Origin: Escherichia coli
GTDB lineage: Bacteria > Pseudomonadota > Gammaproteobacteria > Enterobacterales > Enterobacteriaceae
Strand: one strand, 5' to 3'
DNA: 64,000 bases
NCBI RefSeq assembly: GCF_009931435.1
Contig: NZ_CP043414.1
Below the pieces are notes generated by a model. It was not told the DNA's origin. It did not search any database and saw only the letters and a program-made list of their open reading frames with translations. Position numbers and translations under genes: made by a program. Shown here piece by piece: positions 3-44,977 of the stretch (within the stretch, counting starts at the first letter, position 1; each line of letters starts with the position of its first letter).

Positions 3-3000
3 ATGGCCTCCGACGGTACAATCTATAAACGACCACTGTTGTTGAAAGAGCTGAGTAACACCAGTGGTCGAAATTCTACGGCTGAAAACGGTGAAGATTG
101 GGCAAGATTCACCTGGACTCAGTCGGCTGACACCAGCATGAATGGGTGTGGTACAGATTATATGCCGACGCTGGATGGACTGAAGTCTTTGTATGACGCC
201 AATAGCGGTAATGTGATGAGTACGGTGCAGGGATGGCCGGTAAAAACGACCTATCTCACCAATACCCCGAGTGATACGCAAACAGGGAGCCGTTACTACA
301 ATGTGGTGCAACTGAATACTGGTGCAGTCTCACAAATCTCGACGAACACAGTCGTGCAACAAACCTGCCGCACAACGCCGTTGACGGCTGCTAGCCAGAT
401 TACGCTGGAGGCCTCAGACCCCTCGCAATTTGTCAGCATTGACAGTACGCTTAGCGCGATCAAAGTGCAGAAAGGCGATAGCGTGTCGATCCGCATTTCG
501 ACTAAAGATGCACAGGGGAATTTAGTCGGCAATACGCCGTTTGCCCTGAAACACGCTAACCCGGTCAATCGCCAAAATGTGGCGTCAACATCGCAGAAAG
601 TGTCGGTCACGACTGCGTCGGGTACGACGGTGGATACCACTGCATCGACCATTCTGTATGGCGTGACCGGGCCAGACGGAACCACCACGATGACACTCCG
701 ACAGGATGTGTCTACTGGACTCAAAACCGACTTTTATGCTCTGTTGAACGATACCGGCGTGTCGTCGAACACCTTGCCAGTGATCTTCACCGTCGTCACC
801 AGCCCGGATACACCGCTGGCGGCCAACTGGGGGCATATGGCGGAAACCTTTACCAGCAGCAAGGGCGTCACCTTCAAACGGCCTTTCCTCAAAGCTGAAC
901 TTTCTGGTGGTACGGCGGTAACGACCAATAATGAAGTCTGGTCGCGCCTGACAGCAACGGAGAAAACGGATGCCAGCAAGGCTGGGTGTGATGAGAGTTA
1001 TCAACCGCTGATGACTGACATGCAGGGGTTGTATGCGGATTACCCTAACAACCAGTTGGGCACGGTGCTCGGCTTGCCGACTTCCGCCGGGTATATGTGG
1101 GCCTACGACATGATGACGGTTTCTGGCAGCAGCTGGAGCAACCAGGCATATTCGCTCGTTAATGGTCAGACAGTTCAGGCATCGTCCAGTTATACGGCGG
1201 TAGTGATGTGCCTGGTGGAACCGCATACCGTTCCGGCGATGATAGAGATCACTTCAACAGCACAGGATGCGGCAAAAACGGTCAGCAATGGTGGTCGACC
1301 GAGCGCCGTAGCGAAGAAAGGTGAGACGATTCCGCTGACGGTGACCGTACGTGATAGCACCGGGAATCCGGTACCCTACGCCGACTTTACCCTCACGCGT
1401 GGAACGACGCTGGATCGCTCGAAAGCAACCGTTAACTCGAGTGCGGACGATCTTACCGTGAAGTCATTGATACCCGCGAACAGCGACGCTGGGCTGACGG
1501 CAAATGGGGCAAAAGTGCTCAGAACAACGGGCAGTGATGGCACAGCCACCTTTGAAGTGAGCCAGAATGCCACGACAGGTCTGGCGACACCGATAACCGT
1601 CACGCTGGCGCGCGATACAACCAAAACCGCCACGCTGGATGTTATCTACACGGTGATAACCAGCCCGGACTCACCGAGCGCGAAATTCTGGGGATACATG
1701 CCGGACACCTTTACCAGTTCGGCAGGCGTCACCTTCAGACGACCGCTCCTGAAAGCCGAAGCGACTTCAGGGTCATCGATTAGCACTAACGGCAATGGTG
1801 AAGTGTGGTCGTATATGAGCAACGTTCAAAATTTAACATCGACAGATTGTCCGCTGGAGAATCAACCGCGCAGTAATGAATTGTTGGATTTGTATAATGA
1901 TCATCCCAACGGCGCGATAATGACTGACCTGGGGCTGCCGATATATGCAGGCAAGTGGTGGGCTTATGATATGGTCATGCCGGATTTATATACGTGGCAG
2001 TATCAGACTGTCAGCCTGAGCGCAGGAGATATCGCGAAGAGCTCGGCAAACAACGCGCTGATGCTTTGCCTGGCGAAGCCGCATCCGGCAGGCGTCAGCG
2101 TAATGTTGACGTCATCCGCAATGGATAACGCCAGAACCCTCAGTAATGGCGGGCGACCCAGCGCGTCAGTGAAAAAAGGTAACCCACTGCCAATTGTGGT
2201 GACGGTCAAAGATCGTGATGGCAACCCGCTGGCGGGAGAGGCCGTTACGCTCAGGCGTGGTTCAGCGATGAGCCGTTCAGGAGCAGGAGTGGGCACGCCG
2301 GCAAATGCAATGACGTTGACAGAGTTGACACCTGTGTCGGCGGAGTTTTCTCTGGCCGCACACGATACGCAATGGCAAGGTTTCACCGGCAGTGATGGTA
2401 CGGCCACTTTCAATGTTGAACAGCCTGAGACCATCGGCCTGGCCATTCCGTTCACCGCTATACTGGCGCGAGATGTCGCAACTACCAGCGTCCTTGATAC
2501 GATCTTTACCGTCGTCACCAGCCCGGATTCCGCAATGGCGACCTACTGGGGCCATATGCCGGATACGGTAACGGCGGAAAACGGCGTGGTCTTTGAACGG
2601 CCTAAATTGTTGAAAGAGCTGCCGTCGAGCGCCGGAGTCAGTCAGGTGACGGATAACAATGAAGTGTGGCCGTTGTTTAAGGCAACGCAAAGGGAAGATA
2701 GCAGCCTCAGTCCTTGTGAAGCGGCACGTCGGCCATTGAGCGATGATTTATTATCGCTCTACGCGCGCTATCCGGGGAACACGCTGACGACTCAAATCGG
2801 CTGGTCTACGAAGTATGCATGGTGGGCACTGGATAACAAGCAGGGGAATGCCCTGGTTGTCAGTCTGAATAATGGTTTTGAGTCGTCGACGGCGAGTACG
2901 GGGTATCAGGGATGTCTGGTCAATCCCCGCGCGACCGTCTCCAGCGTCACGCTGACATCGACGGTGATAGATGCCACTACGCAGGCGGCGAAGGTAAAAA

Positions 3001-3761
3001 AAGGTGAAGCCGCGCCCGTCGTTGTTACCGTAAAAGACAGCGCCGGGAAGCCGGTACCGAATGTCGCTTTCACCTTAAAACGTGGTGATGCCGTGCCGCG
3101 TAACAGCGGGGCGACGTTGTATGGTGATGTTGCGGCGATGGATGATATGACGGTACAACCTGCCAGCGGGACGGTGGTAACGCTGGCTGACAGTGGGAAT
3201 ACGATCGACGGTGTGACAGGGGCGGACGGTACGGCAAGTTTTGCCGTTCGTCAGGATAATACGCCAGGATATAAAACGCCGTTGACGGTGACGCTGACGG
3301 ATAACGCCACAATAACGGCGACGCTGGATACGATTTTCACCGTGCCGACCAGCCCGAATGTCGCCACGGCGTATTTCTGGGGGCATATGGCGGATACCGC
3401 CACCGTAAGTGGCAAGACGTTACATCGCCCGCTATTGCAATCAGAGTTGCCGTCAGGGGCTACAGCGGCAGTAGCGCCAACGGTGAATAATGAAATCTGG
3501 GCGCTGGCACATGTGATCGATGCTCAAAAATGGGATATTGCAAAGCAGTGCGGTGACTTTAGTAGAGCACCGAGCTATACCGATTTACAGTCGTTACATA
3601 GCAGCTTTAGCGCGCTGGGATGGCCATCATCGATAAGCTTCCCCTATTTCTCTACCGATCGGGCCGGTTCGTTCTATTGTGGCATGGATGAAGGGGCGGG
3701 GACACAAAACTGCGGTATTCAGGCATCCAGTACTGCGGGGTTTGCAACCTGTTTCCAGTAG
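3..3761 (+). CDS. Large repetitive surface/adhesin-like protein, RatA/RatB-like; 5'-truncated by window edge (C-terminal 1252 aa present)
   Basis: Open frame runs from the window start. Four tandem modules of about 285 aa each begin near nt 781, 1641, 2501 and 3331 with a conserved motif (FTVVTSPD...WGHM.DT.T...GV.F.RP.L.KEL). Position next to xseA matches the Salmonella CS54 islet; the family assignment is from memory. Confidence 0.6.
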   Translation: MASDGTIYKRPLLLKELSNTSGRNSTAENGEDWARFTWTQSADTSMNGCGTDYMPTLDGLKSLYDANSGNVMSTVQGWPVKTTYLTNTPSDTQTGSRYYNVVQLNTGAVSQISTNTVVQQTCRTTPLTAASQITLEASDPSQFVSIDSTLSAIKVQKGDSVSIRISTKDAQGNLVGNTPFALKHANPVNRQNVASTSQKVSVTTASGTTVDTTASTILYGVTGPDGTTTMTLRQDVSTGLKTDFYALLNDTGVSSNTLPVIFTVVTSPDTPLAANWGHMAETFTSSKGVTFKRPFLKAELSGGTAVTTNNEVWSRLTATEKTDASKAGCDESYQPLMTDMQGLYADYPNNQLGTVLGLPTSAGYMWAYDMMTVSGSSWSNQAYSLVNGQTVQASSSYTAVVMCLVEPHTVPAMIEITSTAQDAAKTVSNGGRPSAVAKKGETIPLTVTVRDSTGNPVPYADFTLTRGTTLDRSKATVNSSADDLTVKSLIPANSDAGLTANGAKVLRTTGSDGTATFEVSQNATTGLATPITVTLARDTTKTATLDVIYTVITSPDSPSAKFWGYMPDTFTSSAGVTFRRPLLKAEATSGSSISTNGNGEVWSYMSNVQNLTSTDCPLENQPRSNELLDLYNDHPNGAIMTDLGLPIYAGKWWAYDMVMPDLYTWQYQTVSLSAGDIAKSSANNALMLCLAKPHPAGVSVMLTSSAMDNARTLSNGGRPSASVKKGNPLPIVVTVKDRDGNPLAGEAVTLRRGSAMSRSGAGVGTPANAMTLTELTPVSAEFSLAAHDTQWQGFTGSDGTATFNVEQPETIGLAIPFTAILARDVATTSVLDTIFTVVTSPDSAMATYWGHMPDTVTAENGVVFERPKLLKELPSSAGVSQVTDNNEVWPLFKATQREDSSLSPCEAARRPLSDDLLSLYARYPGNTLTTQIGWSTKYAWWALDNKQGNALVVSLNNGFESSTASTGYQGCLVNPRATVSSVTLTSTVIDATTQAAKVKKGEAAPVVVTVKDSAGKPVPNVAFTLKRGDAVPRNSGATLYGDVAAMDDMTVQPASGTVVTLADSGNTIDGVTGADGTASFAVRQDNTPGYKTPLTVTLTDNATITATLDTIFTVPTSPNVATAYFWGHMADTATVSGKTLHRPLLQSELPSGATAAVAPTVNNEIWALAHVIDAQKWDIAKQCGDFSRAPSYTDLQSLHSSFSALGWPSSISFPYFSTDRAGSFYCGMDEGAGTQNCGIQASSTAGFATCFQ

Positions 3762-3816: not shown

Positions 3817-5214
<1,398 letters not shown>

Positions 5215-5273
5215 TTATTCAGTCGATAGTAACCCGCCCTCCGGGGATAGCAAGCATTTTTTGCAAAAAGGGG

Positions 5274-5302
5274 TAGATGCAATCGGTTACGCTCTGTATA
5301 AT
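5274..5302 (+). promoter_or_regulatory. guaBA promoter region; -10 TATAAT at 5297-5302, possible PurR-like operator at 5277-5292
   Basis: TATAAT hexamer 44 nt upstream of the guaB ATG; ATGCAATCGGTTACGC resembles the PurR consensus with mismatches. Confidence 0.45.
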
Positions 5303-5345
5303 GCCGCGGCAATATTTATTAACCACTCTGGTCGAGATATTGCCC

Positions 5346-6812
5346 ATGCTACGTATCGCTAAAGAAGCTCTGACGTTTGACGACGTTCTCCTCGTTCCTG
5401 CACATTCTACCGTTCTGCCGAATACCGCTGACCTCAGCACCCAGCTGACGAAAACTATTCGTCTGAATATCCCTATGCTCTCCGCAGCAATGGATACCGT
5501 AACGGAAGCGCGCCTGGCTATCGCCCTGGCTCAGGAAGGCGGTATCGGCTTTATCCACAAAAACATGTCCATTGAACGCCAGGCTGAAGAAGTTCGCCGC
5601 GTGAAAAAACACGAATCTGGCGTGGTAACCGATCCGCAGACTGTTCTGCCGACAACCACCCTGCGTGAAGTGAAAGAACTGACCGAGCGTAACGGCTTTG
5701 CAGGCTATCCGGTAGTTACCGAAGAAAACGAACTGGTCGGCATCATCACCGGTCGTGACGTGCGTTTTGTTACCGACCTGAACCAGCCGGTCAGCGTTTA
5801 CATGACGCCGAAAGAGCGTCTGGTAACCGTGCGTGAAGGCGAAGCCCGTGAAGTTGTGCTGGCAAAAATGCACGAAAAACGCGTTGAAAAAGCGCTGGTG
5901 GTTGATGATGAATTCCACCTGATCGGCATGATCACTGTGAAGGACTTCCAGAAAGCGGAGCGTAAACCGAACGCCTGTAAAGACGAGCAAGGCCGTCTGC
6001 GTGTTGGTGCAGCGGTTGGTGCAGGTGCGGGTAACGAAGAGCGTGTTGATGCGCTGGTTGCCGCAGGCGTTGACGTTCTGCTGATCGACTCCTCTCACGG
6101 TCACTCTGAAGGCGTTCTGCAGCGTATCCGTGAAACTCGCGCTAAATATCCTGATCTGCAAATCATCGGCGGCAACGTGGCAACAGCTGCAGGTGCCCGC
6201 GCGCTGGCAGAAGCCGGTTGCAGTGCCGTTAAAGTGGGTATCGGCCCTGGTTCTATTTGTACTACCCGCATTGTTACTGGCGTCGGTGTTCCGCAGATCA
6301 CCGCCGTTGCTGACGCAGTAGAAGCCCTGGAAGGCACCGGGATTCCGGTTATCGCAGACGGTGGTATTCGTTTCTCTGGCGATATCGCGAAAGCTATCGC
6401 TGCTGGTGCAAGCGCGGTGATGGTAGGCTCCATGCTGGCGGGTACTGAAGAATCCCCGGGTGAAATCGAACTCTACCAGGGCCGTTCTTACAAGTCTTAC
6501 CGTGGGATGGGCTCTCTGGGCGCGATGTCCAAAGGTTCTTCTGACCGTTACTTCCAGAGCGACAACGCTGCCGACAAACTGGTGCCGGAAGGTATCGAAG
6601 GCCGTGTAGCCTACAAAGGTCGTCTGAAAGAGATCATTCACCAGCAGATGGGCGGCCTGCGCTCCTGTATGGGCCTGACCGGCTGTGGTACTATCGACGA
6701 ACTGCGTACTAAAGCGGAGTTTGTACGTATCAGCGGTGCGGGCATTCAGGAAAGCCACGTTCACGACGTGACCATTACTAAAGAGTCCCCGAACTACCGT
6801 CTGGGCTCCTGA
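5346..6812 (+). CDS. guaB: IMP dehydrogenase
   Basis: 488 aa from the ATG at 5346 ([13 protein letters not shown]...); the ORF track's upstream extension is rejected in favour of the conserved start. Confidence 0.97.
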
Positions 6813-6880
6813 TTCTCTTCGCCCGACTTCATGTCGGGCGATTTATATTATCTGTTTCACTTGCCTCGGAATAAGCGTCA

Positions 6881-8458
6881 ATGACGGAAAACATTCATAA
6901 GCATCGCATCCTCATTCTGGACTTCGGTTCTCAGTACACCCAACTGGTTGCGCGCCGCGTGCGTGAACTGGGTGTTTACTGCGAACTGTGGGCGTGGGAT
7001 GTGACAGAAGCACAAATTCGTGACTTCAATCCAAGCGGCATTATTCTTTCCGGCGGCCCGGAAAGCACCACCGAAGAAAACAGCCCGCGTGCGCCGCAGT
7101 ATGTCTTTGAAGCAGGCGTACCGGTATTCGGCGTTTGCTATGGTATGCAGACCATGGCAATGCAGTTGGGTGGTCATGTTGAAGCCTCTAACGAACGTGA
7201 ATTTGGCTATGCGCAGGTTGAAGTCGTAAACGACAGCGCACTGGTTCGCGGTATCGAAGATGCTCTGACAGCAGACGGTAAACCTCTGCTCGATGTCTGG
7301 ATGAGCCACGGCGATAAAGTTACCGCTATCCCGTCCGACTTCATCACCGTAGCCAGCACCGAAAGCTGCCCGTTCGCCATCATGGCAAATGAAGAAAAAC
7401 GCTTCTATGGCGTACAGTTCCACCCGGAAGTGACTCATACCCGCCAGGGGATGCGCATGCTGGAGCGTTTTGTGCGTGATATCTGCCAGTGTGAAGCCCT
7501 GTGGACGCCAGCGAAAATTATCGACGATGCAGTAGCCCGTATCCGCGAGCAGGTAGGCGACGATAAAGTGATCCTCGGCCTCTCTGGTGGCGTGGATTCC
7601 TCCGTGACTGCAATGCTGCTGCACCGCGCAATCGGCAAAAACCTGACTTGCGTATTCGTTGACAACGGCCTGCTGCGTCTCAACGAAGCAGAGCAGGTTC
7701 TGGATATGTTTGGCGATCACTTTGGTCTGAACATTGTTCACGTTCCGGCAGAAGATCGCTTCTTGTCAGCGCTGGCTGGTGAAAACGATCCGGAAGCAAA
7801 ACGTAAAATCATCGGTCGCGTTTTCGTTGAAGTATTCGATGAAGAAGCGCTGAAACTGGAAGATGTGAAGTGGCTGGCGCAGGGTACTATCTACCCTGAT
7901 GTTATCGAATCTGCCGCGTCTGCAACCGGTAAAGCTCACGTCATCAAATCTCACCACAACGTGGGCGGCCTGCCGAAAGAGATGAAGATGGGCCTGGTTG
8001 AACCGCTGAAAGAGCTGTTCAAAGACGAAGTGCGTAAAATTGGTCTGGAGCTGGGCCTGCCGTACGACATGCTGTACCGTCACCCGTTCCCGGGACCAGG
8101 GCTTGGCGTTCGTGTGCTGGGCGAAGTGAAGAAAGAGTACTGCGACCTGCTGCGCCGTGCTGATGCCATCTTCATTGAAGAACTGCGTAAAGCGGACCTG
8201 TACGACAAAGTTAGCCAGGCGTTTACCGTGTTCCTGCCGGTACGTTCTGTTGGCGTAATGGGCGATGGTCGTAAATACGACTGGGTTGTGTCTCTGCGTG
8301 CCGTCGAAACCATCGACTTTATGACCGCACACTGGGCACATCTGCCGTACGATTTCCTTGGTCGCGTTTCCAACCGCATTATCAATGAAGTGAACGGTAT
8401 TTCCCGCGTGGTGTATGACATCAGCGGCAAGCCGCCAGCGACTATTGAGTGGGAGTAG
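6881..8458 (+). CDS. guaA: GMP synthase (glutamine-hydrolysing)
   Basis: 525 aa [25 protein letters not shown]...; 68 bp downstream of guaB. Confidence 0.97.
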
Positions 8459-8500
8459 GACTGGCTATAAATAGTAAATTAAGCCTTTCCAACTAACTTT

Positions 8501-8532
8501 AATGCCAGTCAGTTTGCTGACTGGCATTTTTT
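8501..8532 (+). terminator. Intrinsic terminator of guaBA
   Basis: 12 bp perfect stem (AATGCCAGTCAG / CTGACTGGCATT), 4 nt loop, then a T6 run; 43 nt after the guaA stop. Confidence 0.75.
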
Positions 8533-8752
8533 ATTGGTTTTTCATTGAGTTTATGACTTCTATTTTTAAGGCCGTAACTCTATAACATCGGCTATGGCCT
8601 AAAGATAAAAGCCATTACCAACAAAATGGCGGTATTCCAAAACAGTCTAGCCGGAAGTGCTTACAATGAGATCGATCAAATCGACAAATGAGATACTGGC
8701 CGTTGTGAGCGCCCGGCAACCGTAGCCGTAGGGGGCGAATTTAATGGCTTTG

Positions 8753-9529
8753 TTATGAGCCATTGGTAATCGCACCCATGACAATTTGAAAGAGTTCTTC
8801 TGCTCGATTAGTGGAGCCAATTGCACCTCTTTCTCTCGCCATTCTCTTGTGCTCTGGTAGATCTGAGGACGCATAGATCATAAAAGGAGTTTTGTCTCCC
8901 ATTGCGCGTAATCTTTCTAGTAAGACATAACCTTCTTGCGCCCCTTCTTTGCGATCCATATCCGAAATAATAGCTGCAAACTTATTTGTTTTTAACAATT
9001 CCAAGGCTTCGTCAGTTGAAAGAGCTAAAGCGAACTCTATTCCCTGTGCCTCAAATGCCTGTCTTTCGTAAACATTATTTTCTGGTCGATCATCCACCCA
9101 TAAAATACGATTTCGCCATTTTTCATGCTTACTCTGCCGTTTTGCATTGGATACAACGTTGACGATTTTTTGCAGTTGGCTTTCAGTGACCCCTGCACTA
9201 TTTTCAGGCTGTTTTGCTGTGGCGGCGGTCAATGATGCTGCTGTAGCTATTTGCGCTCTTAAAAAATTATTTTCATCTTTGAAATCTGACGGCCCGTAAA
9301 GCTTATTATGATGTTTCGCAACAAGCCAGAGAAAGCCAAGAAACACAATGACAGGAAAGAAAACCATGAAATAAATAAGGGGAGCTATATGCTCTGATAA
9401 GCCATTACCAAAGCCAACGACGAAAGAGGCAAATCCATAAACGAGAACAATAAAGAGTGCAATGATACCAAGAGGGCTTTTGGTAAATCCTATTGCAGTT
9501 TCAGCAAATTTCTCTGGTTCCATATCCAT
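8753..9529 (-). CDS. Membrane-anchored receiver-like (CheY-fold) protein: two predicted TM helices plus C-terminal pseudo-receiver domain
   Basis: 258 aa ORF. Hydrophobic stretches at about residues 19-41 and 48-72. Residues about 141-252 align by eye to CheY (ILWVDD for the beta1 acidic pair, IISDMD for the phospho-acceptor Asp, IYASS for the Thr/Ser position), but no lysine at the K109-equivalent position. Low GC, about 40 percent. Confidence 0.55.
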   Translation of the reverse strand: MDMEPEKFAETAIGFTKSPLGIIALFIVLVYGFASFVVGFGNGLSEHIAPLIYFMVFFPVIVFLGFLWLVAKHHNKLYGPSDFKDENNFLRAQIATAASLTAATAKQPENSAGVTESQLQKIVNVVSNAKRQSKHEKWRNRILWVDDRPENNVYERQAFEAQGIEFALALSTDEALELLKTNKFAAIISDMDRKEGAQEGYVLLERLRAMGDKTPFMIYASSDLPEHKRMARERGAIGSTNRAEELFQIVMGAITNGS

Positions 9530-9616
9530 CCTCAGTATTGCTCATAACACAGTTAAGTTGTATTAGATCAGACCTGATCTGACAATTACCGGCTATTTAT
9601 AAAGGTATCTGTCAGA

Positions 9617-10012
9617 TTACATCTGGCTTAAGTTTTTCTCATCCCAGATGTGCTTTCCATCAAGTAACGTTTCCATCGGCGTTCGGCCACTGCACATTTT
9701 TCCCTGATGGGTTCGCTCATTATTATAGTGAACCCGCCATTCATCAAGAACCGATTGTAATGCTTCAAGATCATCATATAACTTTTTGCGGAACGTCACC
9801 TGATAAAACTCGTTCAGTATCGTTTTATGGAACTGCTCGCAGATACTATTGGTCTTAGATGACATTGCTTTCGTTTTCGTATGCTCAATATCATTTATCG
9901 CCAGATAAAGCTGGTAATCATGCTGCTCCACTTTACCGCAATCTCTTGGTGTATTGAGAGGCGGGTTATAAAATAAATACTGATACCATGAGGGCGGATC
10001 AATCGTGGTCAT
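9617..10012 (-). pseudogene. 3' remnant of a DDE (rve-type) transposase gene
   Basis: 131 aa ORF whose C-terminal part (SSKTNSICEQFHKTILNEF...HYNNERTHQG...GRTP) matches the integrase-core C-terminus typical of IS481/IS3-type transposases. The N-terminal two thirds of a transposase are absent and the ATPase gene abuts the truncation point. Confidence 0.55.
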
Positions 10013-10027
10013 AGTATCAGGTCATTC

Positions 10028-11542
10028 TCATGGGTTTATTGCGTCCCTGAAGATGACGTCGCTGACCATCTCTCCTCCAAGAAAATCGATCAACATATTC
10101 GAGTTTTCAAGGTCTTCTCTGGTCAATGCCCCGATTGCTTGTCCAACTACTACCTCCCAAGGTTTTTTACACTCAACAATAGCACAGACGAGTTGGCGGA
10201 TTTTCTTGATCTTCTTGTGACGCAATCGGTCGTTCGATTCCATTAGTTCTGCAATCAACGCTATGTCGGAGTGTGTTTGATTATCCTCAACCCATTTTTT
10301 GGCTGCGTCTACAAATTCCACCCATGTAACATTCATTACTGCAAGGCATGAATCAGTCAAAAGAACATTTTCGATAGCGTAGCATCGTAAGCGATAGCGT
10401 TTAAGAGGTAGGCGATGTTCAAGCGACTTGTTGATTACACCATCGCCATCACGAAGGGAAAAGGCGATTGGATTGTCATAGAGTGTACTAAGGAGGTCTA
10501 CGCAAAAATCCTCAAGTTGACTCTGTTGATCTACGCTACCTGCTAGTACGGGAAAGATTTTTATTCGACCCTGTGATGTTCTGGCCGCTTGTTGCCAGAC
10601 TCGTTCGTCGTCCTCTCCTTCCAAAATTAATGCAGCGTCTTCGCTAAGAGAAAGCGATAGGGGGTGCCCGAAGAATGGTGCAATCTTTCGAAGTTCATCG
10701 CTGGCCGGTATCAATGAGATTTCATTTACTGCAAAGCTCTTCGTGCCGATTGATACATATGGGGAGGCGGCAAGAGAACAGACGAGCGGGGAACTATGGG
10801 TGGATAAGCATATGGCAATACTGTTCGCGTGTGTTCTAAATTCGTCGAGCATACTGATTATCAGCTTGCCCAGTCTAGCTTGGAGGTCGGGGTGCAGATG
10901 TACATCAGGCTCATCGAGGAGGAGTACGTTGAATTTCTCCGGATCTATTGTGTCGAAGAAATAGATGATTTCCGCGGCTAATGCAACCGCTTCCGATTCA
11001 CCGCTACTGATTTGGGCCGGATCAATAATCTGACCATCTACAAGTGATCGAAACTCATAATCGACATTACCCATCTCGAGCGAAATGTTAGTGAGAAGCT
11101 GATTAATTTTACTTAATCGGTCTGTCTGAAAGTTTCGCGTTAGATCAGTTCGAATTTCCGGAGTATTGGCAAGTCGACGTAAGTAAAGCGTCTCGGCCTC
11201 GCGAAATAGCATAGCCGATGCAGCTTTGAAGTTGCTTGCCTGATTAACTGCCCGAGTGTGCCTCAGCCATTCGGGGTTGTCGCTCATATTTGTGAGGACG
11301 GTGCCATCACGCTTGAACGATCCTGCTCGCTCTGGACTTACATACCGGACATAAAATTGCTGCTTGTTCTGGCTGATTGTTTGTTCGATATCGCGAAGGA
11401 AACGACTTTTTCCCGCACCGTTTCGGCCCATAATTATGTTGATGTTGTTTAAGCCGTAAAGTCGGCCAATTTGGCTAGATAACTCGCTTACTTTCAAGAT
11501 TGTAACTCCATTTCTTGTTGCCACATACGGTAACAAATACAC
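10028..11542 (-). CDS. ABC-type ATPase fused to TOPRIM-like nuclease motif (OLD-family / Gabija GajA-like), candidate anti-phage protein
   Basis: 504 aa ORF. Walker A GRNGAGKS (residues 39-46, nt 11405-11428), signature-like SSGESE (179-184), Walker B VLLLDEPD (206-213), H-loop-like STHS (247-250), TOPRIM-like Glu in LILEGEDDE (E308) and DxD in LRDGDG (D365/D367). Start codon uncertain: GTG at 11542, or a TTG at residue 16 preceded by GGAG. About 43-45 percent GC. Confidence 0.6.
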   Translation of the reverse strand: MYLLPYVATRNGVTILKVSELSSQIGRLYGLNNINIIMGRNGAGKSRFLRDIEQTISQNKQQFYVRYVSPERAGSFKRDGTVLTNMSDNPEWLRHTRAVNQASNFKAASAMLFREAETLYLRRLANTPEIRTDLTRNFQTDRLSKINQLLTNISLEMGNVDYEFRSLVDGQIIDPAQISSGESEAVALAAEIIYFFDTIDPEKFNVLLLDEPDVHLHPDLQARLGKLIISMLDEFRTHANSIAICLSTHSSPLVCSLAASPYVSIGTKSFAVNEISLIPASDELRKIAPFFGHPLSLSLSEDAALILEGEDDERVWQQAARTSQGRIKIFPVLAGSVDQQSQLEDFCVDLLSTLYDNPIAFSLRDGDGVINKSLEHRLPLKRYRLRCYAIENVLLTDSCLAVMNVTWVEFVDAAKKWVEDNQTHSDIALIAELMESNDRLRHKKIKKIRQLVCAIVECKKPWEVVVGQAIGALTREDLENSNMLIDFLGGEMVSDVIFRDAINP

Positions 11543-11800
11543 TAACTGAATAGGTGCGTTGATGCCTCATTTTGTTCACATCTATGTTGAAATTAGTGAT
11601 GTGAACGAGCTAAGGACTCTATTAGGAGTAGAGCGGCCATATTGTTCGTCTGAACAGCCTGTAGACAGCTCTATTATTGAGACATGGTATTTTTCGTGGT
11701 ATCTGCTAAGTAGTTTGTTTCAAGGCATTGATTTATTTATATTTTATTTTCTCATTGATAGCTGAGTGGGAATGATTTGATCCCTGCACTATGAATTAGC

Positions 11801-19861: not shown

Positions 19862-20499
19862 TTACTCGTCGGCAGCGTAGCCCTGCGGCGGCAGACGTTG
19901 ACCATCCAGCCACGCGGCGTTTTCGTGCATTTTCAGACGACCATCGGCAAACCAGCTAATCACCAGTGGATAAATAGCGTGTTCCTGGGTTTGCACGCGG
20001 GCGGTGATGTCATCCTCCGTATCACCAGCAAATACCGGGACTTTCGCCTGTAAAATAACCGGGCCACCGTCCAGTTCATCGGTGACGAAATGCACCGATG
20101 TACCGTGCTCTTCATCGCCATTTTCCAGCGCCTGACGATGGGTGTGTAATCCGGGATATTTCGGCAGCAGAGAAGGGTGAATGTTCAGCAAACGCCCGGC
20201 ATAGTGGGAGACAAACGCCGGGCTGAGAATGCGCATAAAACCAGCCAGCACGACCACATCGGGTGCGTACATGTCGATTTCATGAATCAACTCCCGGTCA
20301 TAGGCTTCACGACTGTCAAACGCGCTGGCGATGAGCGTATGCGTTGCAATACCCGCCTGGCGGGCGCGTTCAAGGCCGAACGCGTCGGCCTTATTGCTGA
20401 AAACTGCCCGTACGGTGCCTTTAATTTTATTGGTTTTGCAGGAGTCAATAATTGCCTGCAAATTACTTCCGTTGCCGGAAATAAGCACCACAATATTCA

Positions 20500-20500
<1 letters not shown>
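19862..20500 (-). CDS. purN: Phosphoribosylglycinamide formyltransferase 1
   Basis: 212 aa, MNIVVLISGNGSNLQAIID...; start overlaps the purM stop. Confidence 0.96.
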
Positions 20501-21555
<1,055 letters not shown>

Positions 21556-21600
21556 TTACTTGCGGTAGAAAAATAAAATTCGGCGCAATTCTAACAGGGA

Positions 21601-21616
21601 AAGCAAACGTTTGCGA
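21601..21616. promoter_or_regulatory. PurR operator of purMN
   Basis: AAGCAAACGTTTGCGA, a near-perfect match to the PurR palindrome, about 65 bp upstream of the purM start. Confidence 0.65.
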
Positions 21617-21791
21617 GACTGCTTTACACAACCTTTTTGCACGTCTTTTCCCCAGGCGCGCGGCGAAAGAATACTTGTACCAGGGCAAAGGATCGTTTTC
21701 GGATGGAATAATCTTCTTCCATAACCATTTGAATACAAAATAACTTTATCTCAAACCGTTATCATTTTGACTAAAGTCAACGAAAATAATA

Positions 21792-21835
21792 TTGCCGCCT
21801 TGAAGAAAGGAGGTATAATCCGTCGATTTTTTTTG
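21792..21835 (+). promoter_or_regulatory. upp promoter with T8 initiation tract (UTP-sensitive reiterative transcription)
   Basis: -35 TTGCCG (21792-21797), 16 bp spacer, -10 TATAAT (21814-21819), then GATTTTTTTTG at 21825-21835. Confidence 0.65.
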
Positions 21836-21861
21836 TGGCTGCCCCTCAAAGGAGAAAGAGT

Positions 21862-22488
21862 ATGAAGATCGTGGAAGTCAAACACCCACTCGTCAAACAC
21901 AAGCTGGGACTGATGCGTGAGCAAGATATCAGCACCAAGCGCTTTCGCGAACTCGCTTCCGAAGTGGGTAGCCTGCTGACTTACGAAGCGACCGCCGACC
22001 TCGAAACGGAAAAAGTAACTATCGAAGGCTGGAACGGCCCGGTAGAAATCGACCAGATCAAAGGTAAGAAAATTACCGTGGTGCCAATTTTACGTGCCGG
22101 TCTGGGGATGATGGACGGTGTGCTGGAAAACGTTCCGAGCGCGCGCATCAGCGTCGTCGGTATGTACCGTAATGAAGAAACGCTGGAGCCGGTACCGTAC
22201 TTCCAGAAACTGGTTTCTAACATCGATGAGCGTATGGCGCTGATCGTTGACCCAATGCTGGCAACCGGTGGTTCCGTTATCGCGACCATCGACCTGCTGA
22301 AAAAAGCGGGCTGCAGCAGCATCAAAGTTCTGGTGCTGGTAGCTGCGCCAGAAGGTATCGCAGCGCTGGAAAAAGCGCACCCGGACGTCGAACTGTATAC
22401 TGCATCGATTGACCAGGGACTGAACGAGCACGGATACATTATTCCGGGCCTCGGCGATGCCGGTGACAAAATCTTTGGTACGAAATAA
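21862..22488 (+). CDS. upp: Uracil phosphoribosyltransferase
   Basis: 208 aa from [20 protein letters not shown]...; Shine-Dalgarno AAAGGAGA. Confidence 0.96.
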
Positions 22489-22573: not shown

Positions 22574-23863
22574 ATGACGCGCCGTGCTATCGGGGTGAGT
22601 GAAAGACCGCCACTTTTACAAACAATCCCGCTTAGTTTGCAACATTTGTTCGCCATGTTTGGTGCAACCGTCCTGGTGCCCGTCTTATTTCATATTAACC
22701 CGGCGACTGTACTGTTATTCAATGGTATCGGGACGCTGCTGTATCTCTTCATCTGTAAAGGGAAAATCCCGGCTTATCTTGGTTCCAGCTTTGCCTTTAT
22801 TTCACCGGTATTGTTACTGTTGCCGTTAGGGTATGAAGTCGCGCTGGGCGGCTTTATTATGTGCGGCGTGCTGTTCTGCCTGGTTTCTTTTATCGTGAAG
22901 AAAGCGGGGACCGGCTGGCTGGACGTGCTGTTTCCACCTGCGGCAATGGGCGCAATCGTTGCCGTCATCGGTCTGGAGTTGGCGGGCGTAGCTGCCGGTA
23001 TGGCAGGTTTACTCCCGGCTGAAGGGCAAACGCCAGACTCCAAAACCATCATCATCTCCATTACCACGCTGGCAGTCACGGTTTTAGGTTCCGTGCTGTT
23101 TCGTGGTTTCCTGGCAATTATCCCGATTTTAATTGGCGTGCTGGTGGGCTACGCGCTCTCTTTCGCAATGGGAATTGTCGATACTACGCCGATTATTAAT
23201 GCTCACTGGTTTGCGCTGCCAACTCTCTATACGCCGCGCTTCGAGTGGTTTGCCATTCTGACTATTCTGCCAGCGGCGTTAGTGGTTATTGCCGAACACG
23301 TAGGGCACCTGGTGGTAACGGCTAATATCGTCAAAAAAGATCTGCTGCGCGATCCAGGTCTGCACCGTTCGATGTTTGCTAACGGCTTGTCGACCGTGAT
23401 CTCCGGCTTCTTTGGCTCCACGCCAAATACTACCTACGGGGAAAACATTGGCGTGATGGCGATCACCCGTGTTTACAGTACCTGGGTTATCGGCGGGGCG
23501 GCGATTTTCGCTATCCTGCTTTCCTGCGTCGGTAAACTGGCTGCTGCTATCCAGATGATCCCATTGCCGGTGATGGGCGGCGTTTCGCTGCTGCTTTATG
23601 GTGTTATCGGTGCTTCCGGTATTCGTGTTTTGATCGAATCGAAAGTGGATTACAACAAAGCACAGAACCTGATCCTGACTTCTGTCATTTTGATCATCGG
23701 TGTCAGTGGCGCGAAGGTAAACATCGGCGCGGCGGAGCTGAAAGGTATGGCGCTGGCGACCATCGTCGGTATCGGCTTAAGTTTGATCTTCAAACTGATT
23801 AGTGTGCTGCGCCCTGAAGAAGTGGTGCTGGACGCAGAAGACGCGGATATAACAGACAAATAA
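22574..23863 (+). CDS. uraA: Uracil:H+ symporter
   Basis: 429 aa from [21 protein letters not shown]... Confidence 0.96.
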
Positions 23864-26820: not shown

Positions 26821-27882
26821 ATGCTCGAAATGTTGATGCAATGGTATCGCCGCCGTTTTAGTGACCCGGAAGCGATTGCCTTGCTGGTTATTTTAGTTGC
26901 CGGATTTGGCATTATCTTTTTCTTTAGCGGCCTACTCGCACCGTTGCTGGTGGCGATTGTGCTGGCCTATTTACTGGAATGGCCAACCGTGCGCCTACAA
27001 TCAATAGGCTGCTCCCGACGTTGGGCGACATCGATTGTATTGGTCGTTTTCGTCGGTATTTTGCTGCTGATGGCGTTCGTGGTAATGCCTATCGCCTGGC
27101 AACAGGGCATCTACTTAATCCGTGATATGCCGGGGATGCTCAATAAGCTCTCTGATTTTGCCGCCACGTTGCCGCGCCGCTATCCGGCGTTAATGGATGC
27201 GGGGATTATTGATGCAATGGCCGAAAATATGCGCAGCCGAATGCTCACCATGGGCGATTCGGTGGTGAAAATTTCCCTCGCCTCGCTGGTCGGTTTGCTG
27301 ACCATTGCCGTCTATCTGGTGCTGGTGCCATTGATGGTCTTCTTCCTGCTGAAAGACAAAGAGCAAATGTTGAACGCCGTTCGCCGGGTGCTGCCGCGTA
27401 ACCGTGGTCTGGCAGGCCAGGTGTGGAAGGAGATGAATCAACAAATCACCAACTATATCCGTGGGAAAGTGCTGGAGATGATCGTGGTGGGGATTGCCAC
27501 CTGGCTGGGATTCTTACTCTTCGGGCTGAACTATTCGCTGCTGCTGGCGGTGCTGGTCGGCTTCTCGGTACTTATTCCGTACATTGGTGCATTTGTGGTG
27601 ACCATTCCGGTGGTTGGCGTGGCGCTATTCCAGTTTGGTGCTGGCACGGAATTCTGGAGCTGCTTCGCGGTGTATCTGATCATTCAGGCGCTGGACGGCA
27701 ACCTGTTAGTACCTGTGTTGTTCTCCGAAGCGGTTAACCTGCATCCGCTGGTCATTATTTTATCAGTAGTGATCTTCGGTGGTTTGTGGGGATTCTGGGG
27801 CGTATTCTTCGCCATTCCATTGGCGACGCTGATCAAAGCCGTGATTCACGCCTGGCCCGATGGGCAAATCGCGCAAGAATAA
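26821..27882 (+). CDS. perM: AI-2E family transporter (putative permease)
   Basis: 353 aa polytopic membrane protein, MLEMLMQWYRRRFSDPEAIALLVIL... Confidence 0.9.
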   Translation: MLEMLMQWYRRRFSDPEAIALLVILVAGFGIIFFFSGLLAPLLVAIVLAYLLEWPTVRLQSIGCSRRWATSIVLVVFVGILLLMAFVVMPIAWQQGIYLIRDMPGMLNKLSDFAATLPRRYPALMDAGIIDAMAENMRSRMLTMGDSVVKISLASLVGLLTIAVYLVLVPLMVFFLLKDKEQMLNAVRRVLPRNRGLAGQVWKEMNQQITNYIRGKVLEMIVVGIATWLGFLLFGLNYSLLLAVLVGFSVLIPYIGAFVVTIPVVGVALFQFGAGTEFWSCFAVYLIIQALDGNLLVPVLFSEAVNLHPLVIILSVVIFGGLWGFWGVFFAIPLATLIKAVIHAWPDGQIAQE

Positions 27883-44961: not shown

Positions 44962-44977
44962 ACGCAAACGTGTGCGT
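44962..44977. promoter_or_regulatory. PurR operator of purC
   Basis: ACGCAAACGTGTGCGT, matching the PurR consensus, upstream of purC. Confidence 0.65.

Follow-up and report, generated by a model that had tools for sequence, protein, structure and literature searches.

The purMN operator of the purine repressor PurR in a 64-kb segment of an Escherichia coli chromosome

Described PurR operators and the K-12 purMN site

The closest described counterpart of the site examined here is the purMN operator of Escherichia coli K-12. This operator and its regulation were reportedly described by He et al. (J Bacteriol 172:4555) and Meng et al. (Eur J Biochem 187:373) in 1990, and according to the same reports purine repression of purMN is said to be lost in a delta-purR strain. 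The repressor itself, PurR, is represented by many solved structures in the PDB, for example 1pnr and 1qpz. A 2024 review presents PurR as a dimer with hypoxanthine and guanine as corepressors, in which the helix-turn-helix motifs contact the palindrome and the minor groove is opened; bound PurR denies RNA polymerase access to the promoter, and purMN is the illustrated example. The PurR ChIP-chip study of K-12 (Cho et al. 2011, PMC3159470) gives TCGCAAACGTTTGCTT as the purM-purN motif, with a log2 enrichment of 2.08 with adenine versus 0.98 without it. That study highlights purMN as a promoter with a large adenine-dependent change in occupancy and places it among the IMP-pathway units that are repressed by PurR-hypoxanthine (PMC3159470). 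Furthermore, deletion of AAACGTTTGCTT from a high-copy clone carrying the intergenic stretch between upp and purMN resulted in a weaker phenotype, and the phenotype was attributed to titration of PurR (PMC3266220).

Other PurR operators (among them those of purF, purL, purHD, purEK, purT and purC) share the motif ACGNAAACGTTTGCNT and a central CpG with the purMN site, and most PurR operators of the pur regulon are located between the -35 and -10 elements of the promoter. The sites of purC, purB and purR act downstream of the transcription start, in contrast to the purMN site. A further system, the PurR-PurBox pair of Bacillus and Lactococcus, resembles that of E. coli in that its targets are pur genes, among them purMN in L. 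lactis. However, this PurR is a non-homologous, phosphoribosyltransferase-like protein that senses PRPP, and its DNA motif differs. The system has no relevance to the site described here. The PUR box of purMN is already known, and the site reported below is neither a new member of this set of operators nor a variant.

The purM/upp region and its PurR box

The window analysed in this work is the whole stretch of DNA of 64,000 nucleotides (64 kb). It represents an E. coli chromosome: of 5426 complete E. coli genomes, 5425 gave a match to an 801-bp query around the box, the RefSeq annotations under these matches being purM and upp, and alignment shows that the window runs in the reverse orientation relative to K-12 MG1655. 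The gene purM, encoding phosphoribosylformylglycinamidine cyclo-ligase (AIR synthetase), occupies 20500..21537 on the minus strand as judged by its open reading frame, the K-12 alignment and RefSeq. The second gene of the operon, purN (GAR formyltransferase 1), was assigned to 19862..20500 on the minus strand from its open reading frame and the K-12 annotation, and overlaps the purM stop codon by 1 nt. On the plus strand the K-12 alignment places upp at 21862..22488 and uraA at 22574..23863. For purM, the mechanical list of open reading frames starts at a GTG at 21552, as opposed to the annotated GTG at 21537; the latter is conserved across Enterobacterales and is preceded at a distance of 8 nt by a Shine-Dalgarno-like GGGGA (21546..21550, minus strand), of which GGGG(A) is nearly invariant in the Enterobacterales alignment.

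The divergent genes purM and upp are separated by a gap of 324 bp that houses the purMN box, and the K-12 alignment confirmed this placement as it had been given in the sequence-only reading. The K-12 and window sequences are identical over the purM-proximal 130 bp, which run from the start of purM across the box to a point about 60 bp past it, while about 10 substitutions in the intergenic region all fall in mid-gap, between 21671 and 21787. The K-12 operator and that of the window accordingly have the same 16 bp, the same flanking core promoter, the same position and the same divergent upp, and there are no differences in either the operator or the core promoter. Both the adenine-dependent binding in vivo and the PurR-dependent repression of purMN would carry over to the window from the literature on this identical K-12 sequence. 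The purR gene lies outside the 64-kb window (in K-12 the distance is about 0.9 Mb). Since 5424 of 5426 complete E. coli genomes carry it, the source genome almost certainly does so too.

The same gap contains two further elements. In the upp promoter region (21792-21834), TTGCCG and TATAAT are set 16 nt apart, and GA and eight consecutive T residues come next, a layout that we take to be the one linked to reiterative transcription and UTP-sensitive selection of the start site at upp. An FNR-type palindrome, TTGACTAAAGTCAA, is located upstream of upp at 21767-21780 and has been described as an FNR site (PMC3266220).

Direct reading of the window gives AAGCAAACGTTTGCGA at 21601-21616 on the plus strand, exactly as the earlier reading had it, and the purM-sense (minus strand) reading of the same positions is TCGCAAACGTTTGCTT. 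That reading had proposed a comparison with curated PurR sites, and the purMN box proved to be letter for letter the motif of the K-12 ChIP-chip study; it also contains the PurR site that was deleted in the titration experiment (PMC3266220). The assignment of 21601..21616 (minus strand) as the PurR operator, or PUR box, of the purMN promoter is based on its sequence, the ChIP-chip identity, the position weight matrix (PWM) score and conservation. The palindrome is perfect over the inner 12 bp, GCAAACGTTTGC, whereas the outermost two base pairs on each side are asymmetric, such that 6 of the 8 pairs are palindromic and the earlier description of the box as near-perfect is a fair one. In its centre the box has a CpG at positions 8-9, located on the dyad. 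In PurR-DNA crystal structures the central CpG step is the point at which the hinge helices intercalate. Compared with the ideal palindrome ACGCAAACGTTTGCGT the box has 2 mismatches (14 of 16 positions match), and when read in the purM sense it agrees with the ChIP-derived motif at 13 of the 14 specified positions, with 1 mismatch. It differs from the other PurR operators in having T instead of A at position 1 and TT instead of GT at its end, and as a result its PWM score is in the mid-range.

A search with ACGCAAACGTTTGCGT allowing up to 3 mismatches returned 3 matches in the 64-kb window, compared to 0.48 expected from shuffled sequences. Only ChIP motifs from outside the window, 24 in all, went into the PWM, which avoids circularity. 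With this matrix the purMN box scored 16.8 bits (p = 9.6e-7 per position), a score for which the chance expectation is 0.12 matches in the window (both strands) and 6e-4 in the gap. The box was the third-ranked site in the 128 kb of strand scanned, and its score falls in the lower half of the range covered by the ChIP sites (11.6-24.9 bits). Other top-ranked sites include three that were reported by ChIP-chip, namely those of purC (ACGCAAACGTGTGCGT, 44962-44977), guaBA (reverse complement GCGTAACCGATTGCAT, 5277-5292) and the divergent yfgO/bepA gap (CCGGAAGCGATTGCCT, 26866-26881), and the window holds four ChIP-documented PurR sites when that of purMN is included.

One high-scoring sequence, ACGGCAACGATTGCGC at 22950-22965 (minus strand), lies inside uraA and reaches 17.8 bits with the PurR matrix, which is more than the purMN operator itself. 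This 16-mer, which is also found in K-12, sits on codons for GAIVAV. Its synonymous positions drift freely in other Enterobacterales genera and it is separated by about 1 kb from the reported ChIP region; on these grounds it was rejected as a second operator. As judged from the sequence comparison, it is probably a by-product of coding.

Elsewhere in the window, three further features differ from K-12. A large open reading frame at 3-3761 (plus strand), cut by the window edge, encodes at least 1252 amino acids, in which InvE_AD adhesion and BIg21 domains recur; it adjoins xseA, a counterpart is absent from K-12 at that position, and it is an accessory adhesin gene. Directly downstream of guaA there is a 3.3-kb insertion (8455-11762) that is absent from K-12; of 5426 complete E. 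coli genomes, only 27 have it at full length. On the minus strand it encodes an AAA ATPase (10028-11542) that weakly resembles the ATPases PDC-M01A, AriA, PtuA and GajA of defence systems, together with a fragment of an rve_3 integrase (9617-10012) and an open reading frame of response-regulator type (8753-9529); judging by this gene content, the insertion may be a small defence islet. The intervening xseA-guaB-guaA segment (3885-8454) shows 93.3% identity to K-12, compared to 96-98% for the rest of the window, which suggests a recombined or divergent segment adjoining two accessory insertions.

Conservation and promoter architecture

The conservation of the box was examined by a footprint that was blind to the operator: species-representative genomes were scanned with a degenerate DNA pattern for the N-terminal peptide of PurM, a pattern that holds no operator information, and this yielded 120 purM loci from diverse proteobacteria. 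The 300 nt upstream of purM were then scored with the PWM, and sites of at least 13 bits were counted as boxes; these were centred approximately 60-140 nt before the start codon, mostly at 60-85 nt. A box was present at 25 of 26 Enterobacterales loci, at all 11 Vibrionales loci and at 2 of 3 Aeromonadales loci. None of the 28 Alteromonadales purM loci had one, and among the other purM loci it was found at 1 of 45, in an Enterobacter-like MAG. None of the scorable 300-nt control segments taken from inside purM reached 13 bits. Across the sampled taxa this distribution presumably matches that of PurR itself. The footprint sharply separates a true site from a look-alike such as the 16-mer in uraA.

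Within Enterobacterales, the distance from the centre of the box to the purM start was 61-74 nt in 23 of 25 box-positive loci, the remaining two being those of Mangrovibacter (129 nt) and Pectobacterium (139 nt); in the window the box occupies the positions 64-79 nt upstream of this codon, the GTG at 21537. Alignment of the 26 Enterobacterales upstream regions revealed a conserved block, CTCGCAAACGTTTGC-N6-CTGTTAGAAT, whereas the sequence upstream of it could not be aligned. Among the 25 box-positive Enterobacterales, 24 shared one and the same core 12-mer, from which that of Pectobacterium differed by one substitution. At the level of the species, 5341 of 5424 E. coli genomes showed 100% identity over the 60-bp core comprising the box and the -10 element, while the surrounding 801 bp reached at least 99% identity in only 556 of 5426.

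An invariant block in the Enterobacterales alignment also points to a promoter element for purMN, TGTTAGAAT (21588..21596, minus strand), a putative extended -10 in which TG is located at 21596-21595 and TAGAAT at 21593-21588. In all 25 box-positive Enterobacterales the spacing between the box and this -10 is exactly 7 nt. Placing the transcription start at an A at 21580 (minus strand), 7 nt past the -10 hexamer, the box would span positions -36 to -21 approximately. This placement agrees with a report of a PurR site 28 nt upstream of purM (PMC3266220), and with the general location of PurR sites between -35 and -10 elements (PMC3159470). The -35 position of the purMN promoter reads TCGCAA, which is a poor match, and this accounts both for the reliance of the promoter on its TG extension and for the failure of a simple sigma-70 promoter scan, which called no promoter on the purM strand. 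The box had earlier been described as marking purine-repressor control; with the start placed as above, this can be refined to a location within the core promoter, flanked by the -35 position on one side and by the extended -10 on the other.

The TG-extended TAGAAT promoter of purM is conserved from Vibrio to Escherichia. In Vibrionales the box ends exactly 18 nt before the -10 in 10 of 10 loci with both elements detected, and at one Aeromonas locus this distance is 23 nt (loci compared for spacing: L016, L022, L033, L037, L052, L057, L074, L080, L093, L116 and L118). The purM regions of Vibrionales and Aeromonadales thus resemble that of E. coli with respect to the box, the TG-extended TAGAAT -10 and the divergent upp, but their box overlaps the -35 position, unlike the E. 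coli box, which lies in the spacer. The difference in spacing between Vibrionales and Enterobacterales corresponds to a shift of 11 bp, or one helical turn. A rigid spacing that is specific for each order is only a slightly new observation and a minor point; it may be a hint that helical phase constrains repression. A stricter version, in which PurR would have to sit on a defined side of the helix with respect to RNA polymerase and would repress by bend phasing or a specific repressor-polymerase geometry and not by simple occupancy of any overlapping position, appears unlikely to us. Three of the Vibrio loci (L016, L037 and L057) have, about 52 nt upstream of the main box, a further LacI-type palindrome that is weaker (TTATAAACGATTTCGT or similar).

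Repression of purMN and alternative readings

Taken together, these data leave us highly confident that 21601-21616 is the operator through which PurR, a LacI-family regulator, controls purMN, probably by blocking its promoter. The control of purMN by PurR proposed in the sequence-only reading is supported by the identity of TCGCAAACGTTTGCTT with the K-12 ChIP-chip motif, and the comparative tests agree. In the mechanism we envisage, a rise in hypoxanthine or guanine would lead the PurR dimer to bind the palindrome, each helix-turn-helix taking one half-site while, at the central CpG, the hinge helices insert into the minor groove. Bound in this way, PurR would cover positions from about -36 to -21, over the region that sigma-70 must contact, and RNA polymerase would be kept from forming the open complex at the purMN promoter. 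The outcome would be reduced synthesis of AIR synthetase (PurM) and GAR transformylase (PurN). We infer occlusion to be the mode of repression.

It might be asked whether the box also represses the divergent upp-uraA genes and thus serves as a bidirectional operator. The arrangement of the genes would be compatible with this, as upp and purM are divergent at 19 of 23 Enterobacterales, 11 of 11 Vibrionales and 3 of 3 Aeromonadales loci containing upp, and some pyrimidine genes are indeed regulated by PurR (PMC3159470). Nevertheless, the -10 of upp (21814-21819) lies about 200 bp from the box, and the fixed spacing ties the box to the -10 of purM, which speaks against control of upp. In addition, PurR is not known to carry the tetramerisation helix of LacI that is needed for looping. 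Moreover, in the ChIP study purM-purN is the only transcription unit to which the site is assigned (PMC3159470), and we regard an additional role at upp as very unlikely.

Still less probable is that the main binder of the box is another LacI/GalR paralogue, such as RbsR, GalR/GalS or CytR. A centre of the AAACGTTT type is common to operators of the LacI family, RbsR is the closest paralogue of PurR with a solved structure (E = 4.6e-95), and GalR has been found by ChIP-chip to bind PurR-like sites at the purR gene. However, purMN is absent from the GalR ChIP-chip list, which leaves cross-regulation of purMN by GalR unsupported, and its half-site CGCAAAC fits the PurR motif and not the GTG...CAC ends of GalR sites. 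The regulated operon belongs to purine biosynthesis, and a dominant role of another repressor is refuted by the loss of repression that Meng et al. and He et al. reported in 1990 for delta-purR. The occupancy observed at purMN by PurR ChIP, furthermore, depends on adenine (PMC3159470). Some cross-binding by RbsR, which binds a related palindrome, is possible as a minor contribution beside that of PurR.

Short palindromes do arise by chance, and the 16-mer in uraA is a precedent within the window for a look-alike with an even higher score. The notion that the purMN box is likewise just an A/T-rich symmetric 12-mer that resembles the PurR consensus and has no function has nevertheless a negligible probability: only about 6e-4 matches of this quality are expected in the gap, the 12-mer has stayed invariant in all but one of the box-positive Enterobacterales amid non-coding DNA that cannot be aligned and at a fixed 7 nt from the -10, and the identical sequence is bound by PurR in vivo in K-12 (PMC3159470). 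The statistics and the footprint exclude a chance origin, and the box is more than a coincidence. Equally negligible is the idea that this inverted repeat works as an RNA or DNA structure (a hairpin, a terminator or a leader riboswitch), which was rejected since its arms abut with no loop and form no stable hairpin, local folding of the single strand is weak (-4 kcal/mol, z = -1.2), searches gave no terminator-like site and, at E <= 1 in 21400-22000, no Rfam family, the box lies upstream of the transcript if the start is placed as above, and comparison across species showed no compensatory changes in the arms, the bases themselves being conserved.

The reading of 21601-21616 as the PurR operator of purMN is of importance only as a correct annotation of a known site, and it is useful as a positive control, in that a classical operator was recovered from a reading of raw sequence made without tools. 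As for the organism, purMN accounts for steps 3 and 5 in the de novo synthesis of IMP, and the box ties these steps to feedback by PurR together with hypoxanthine or guanine.
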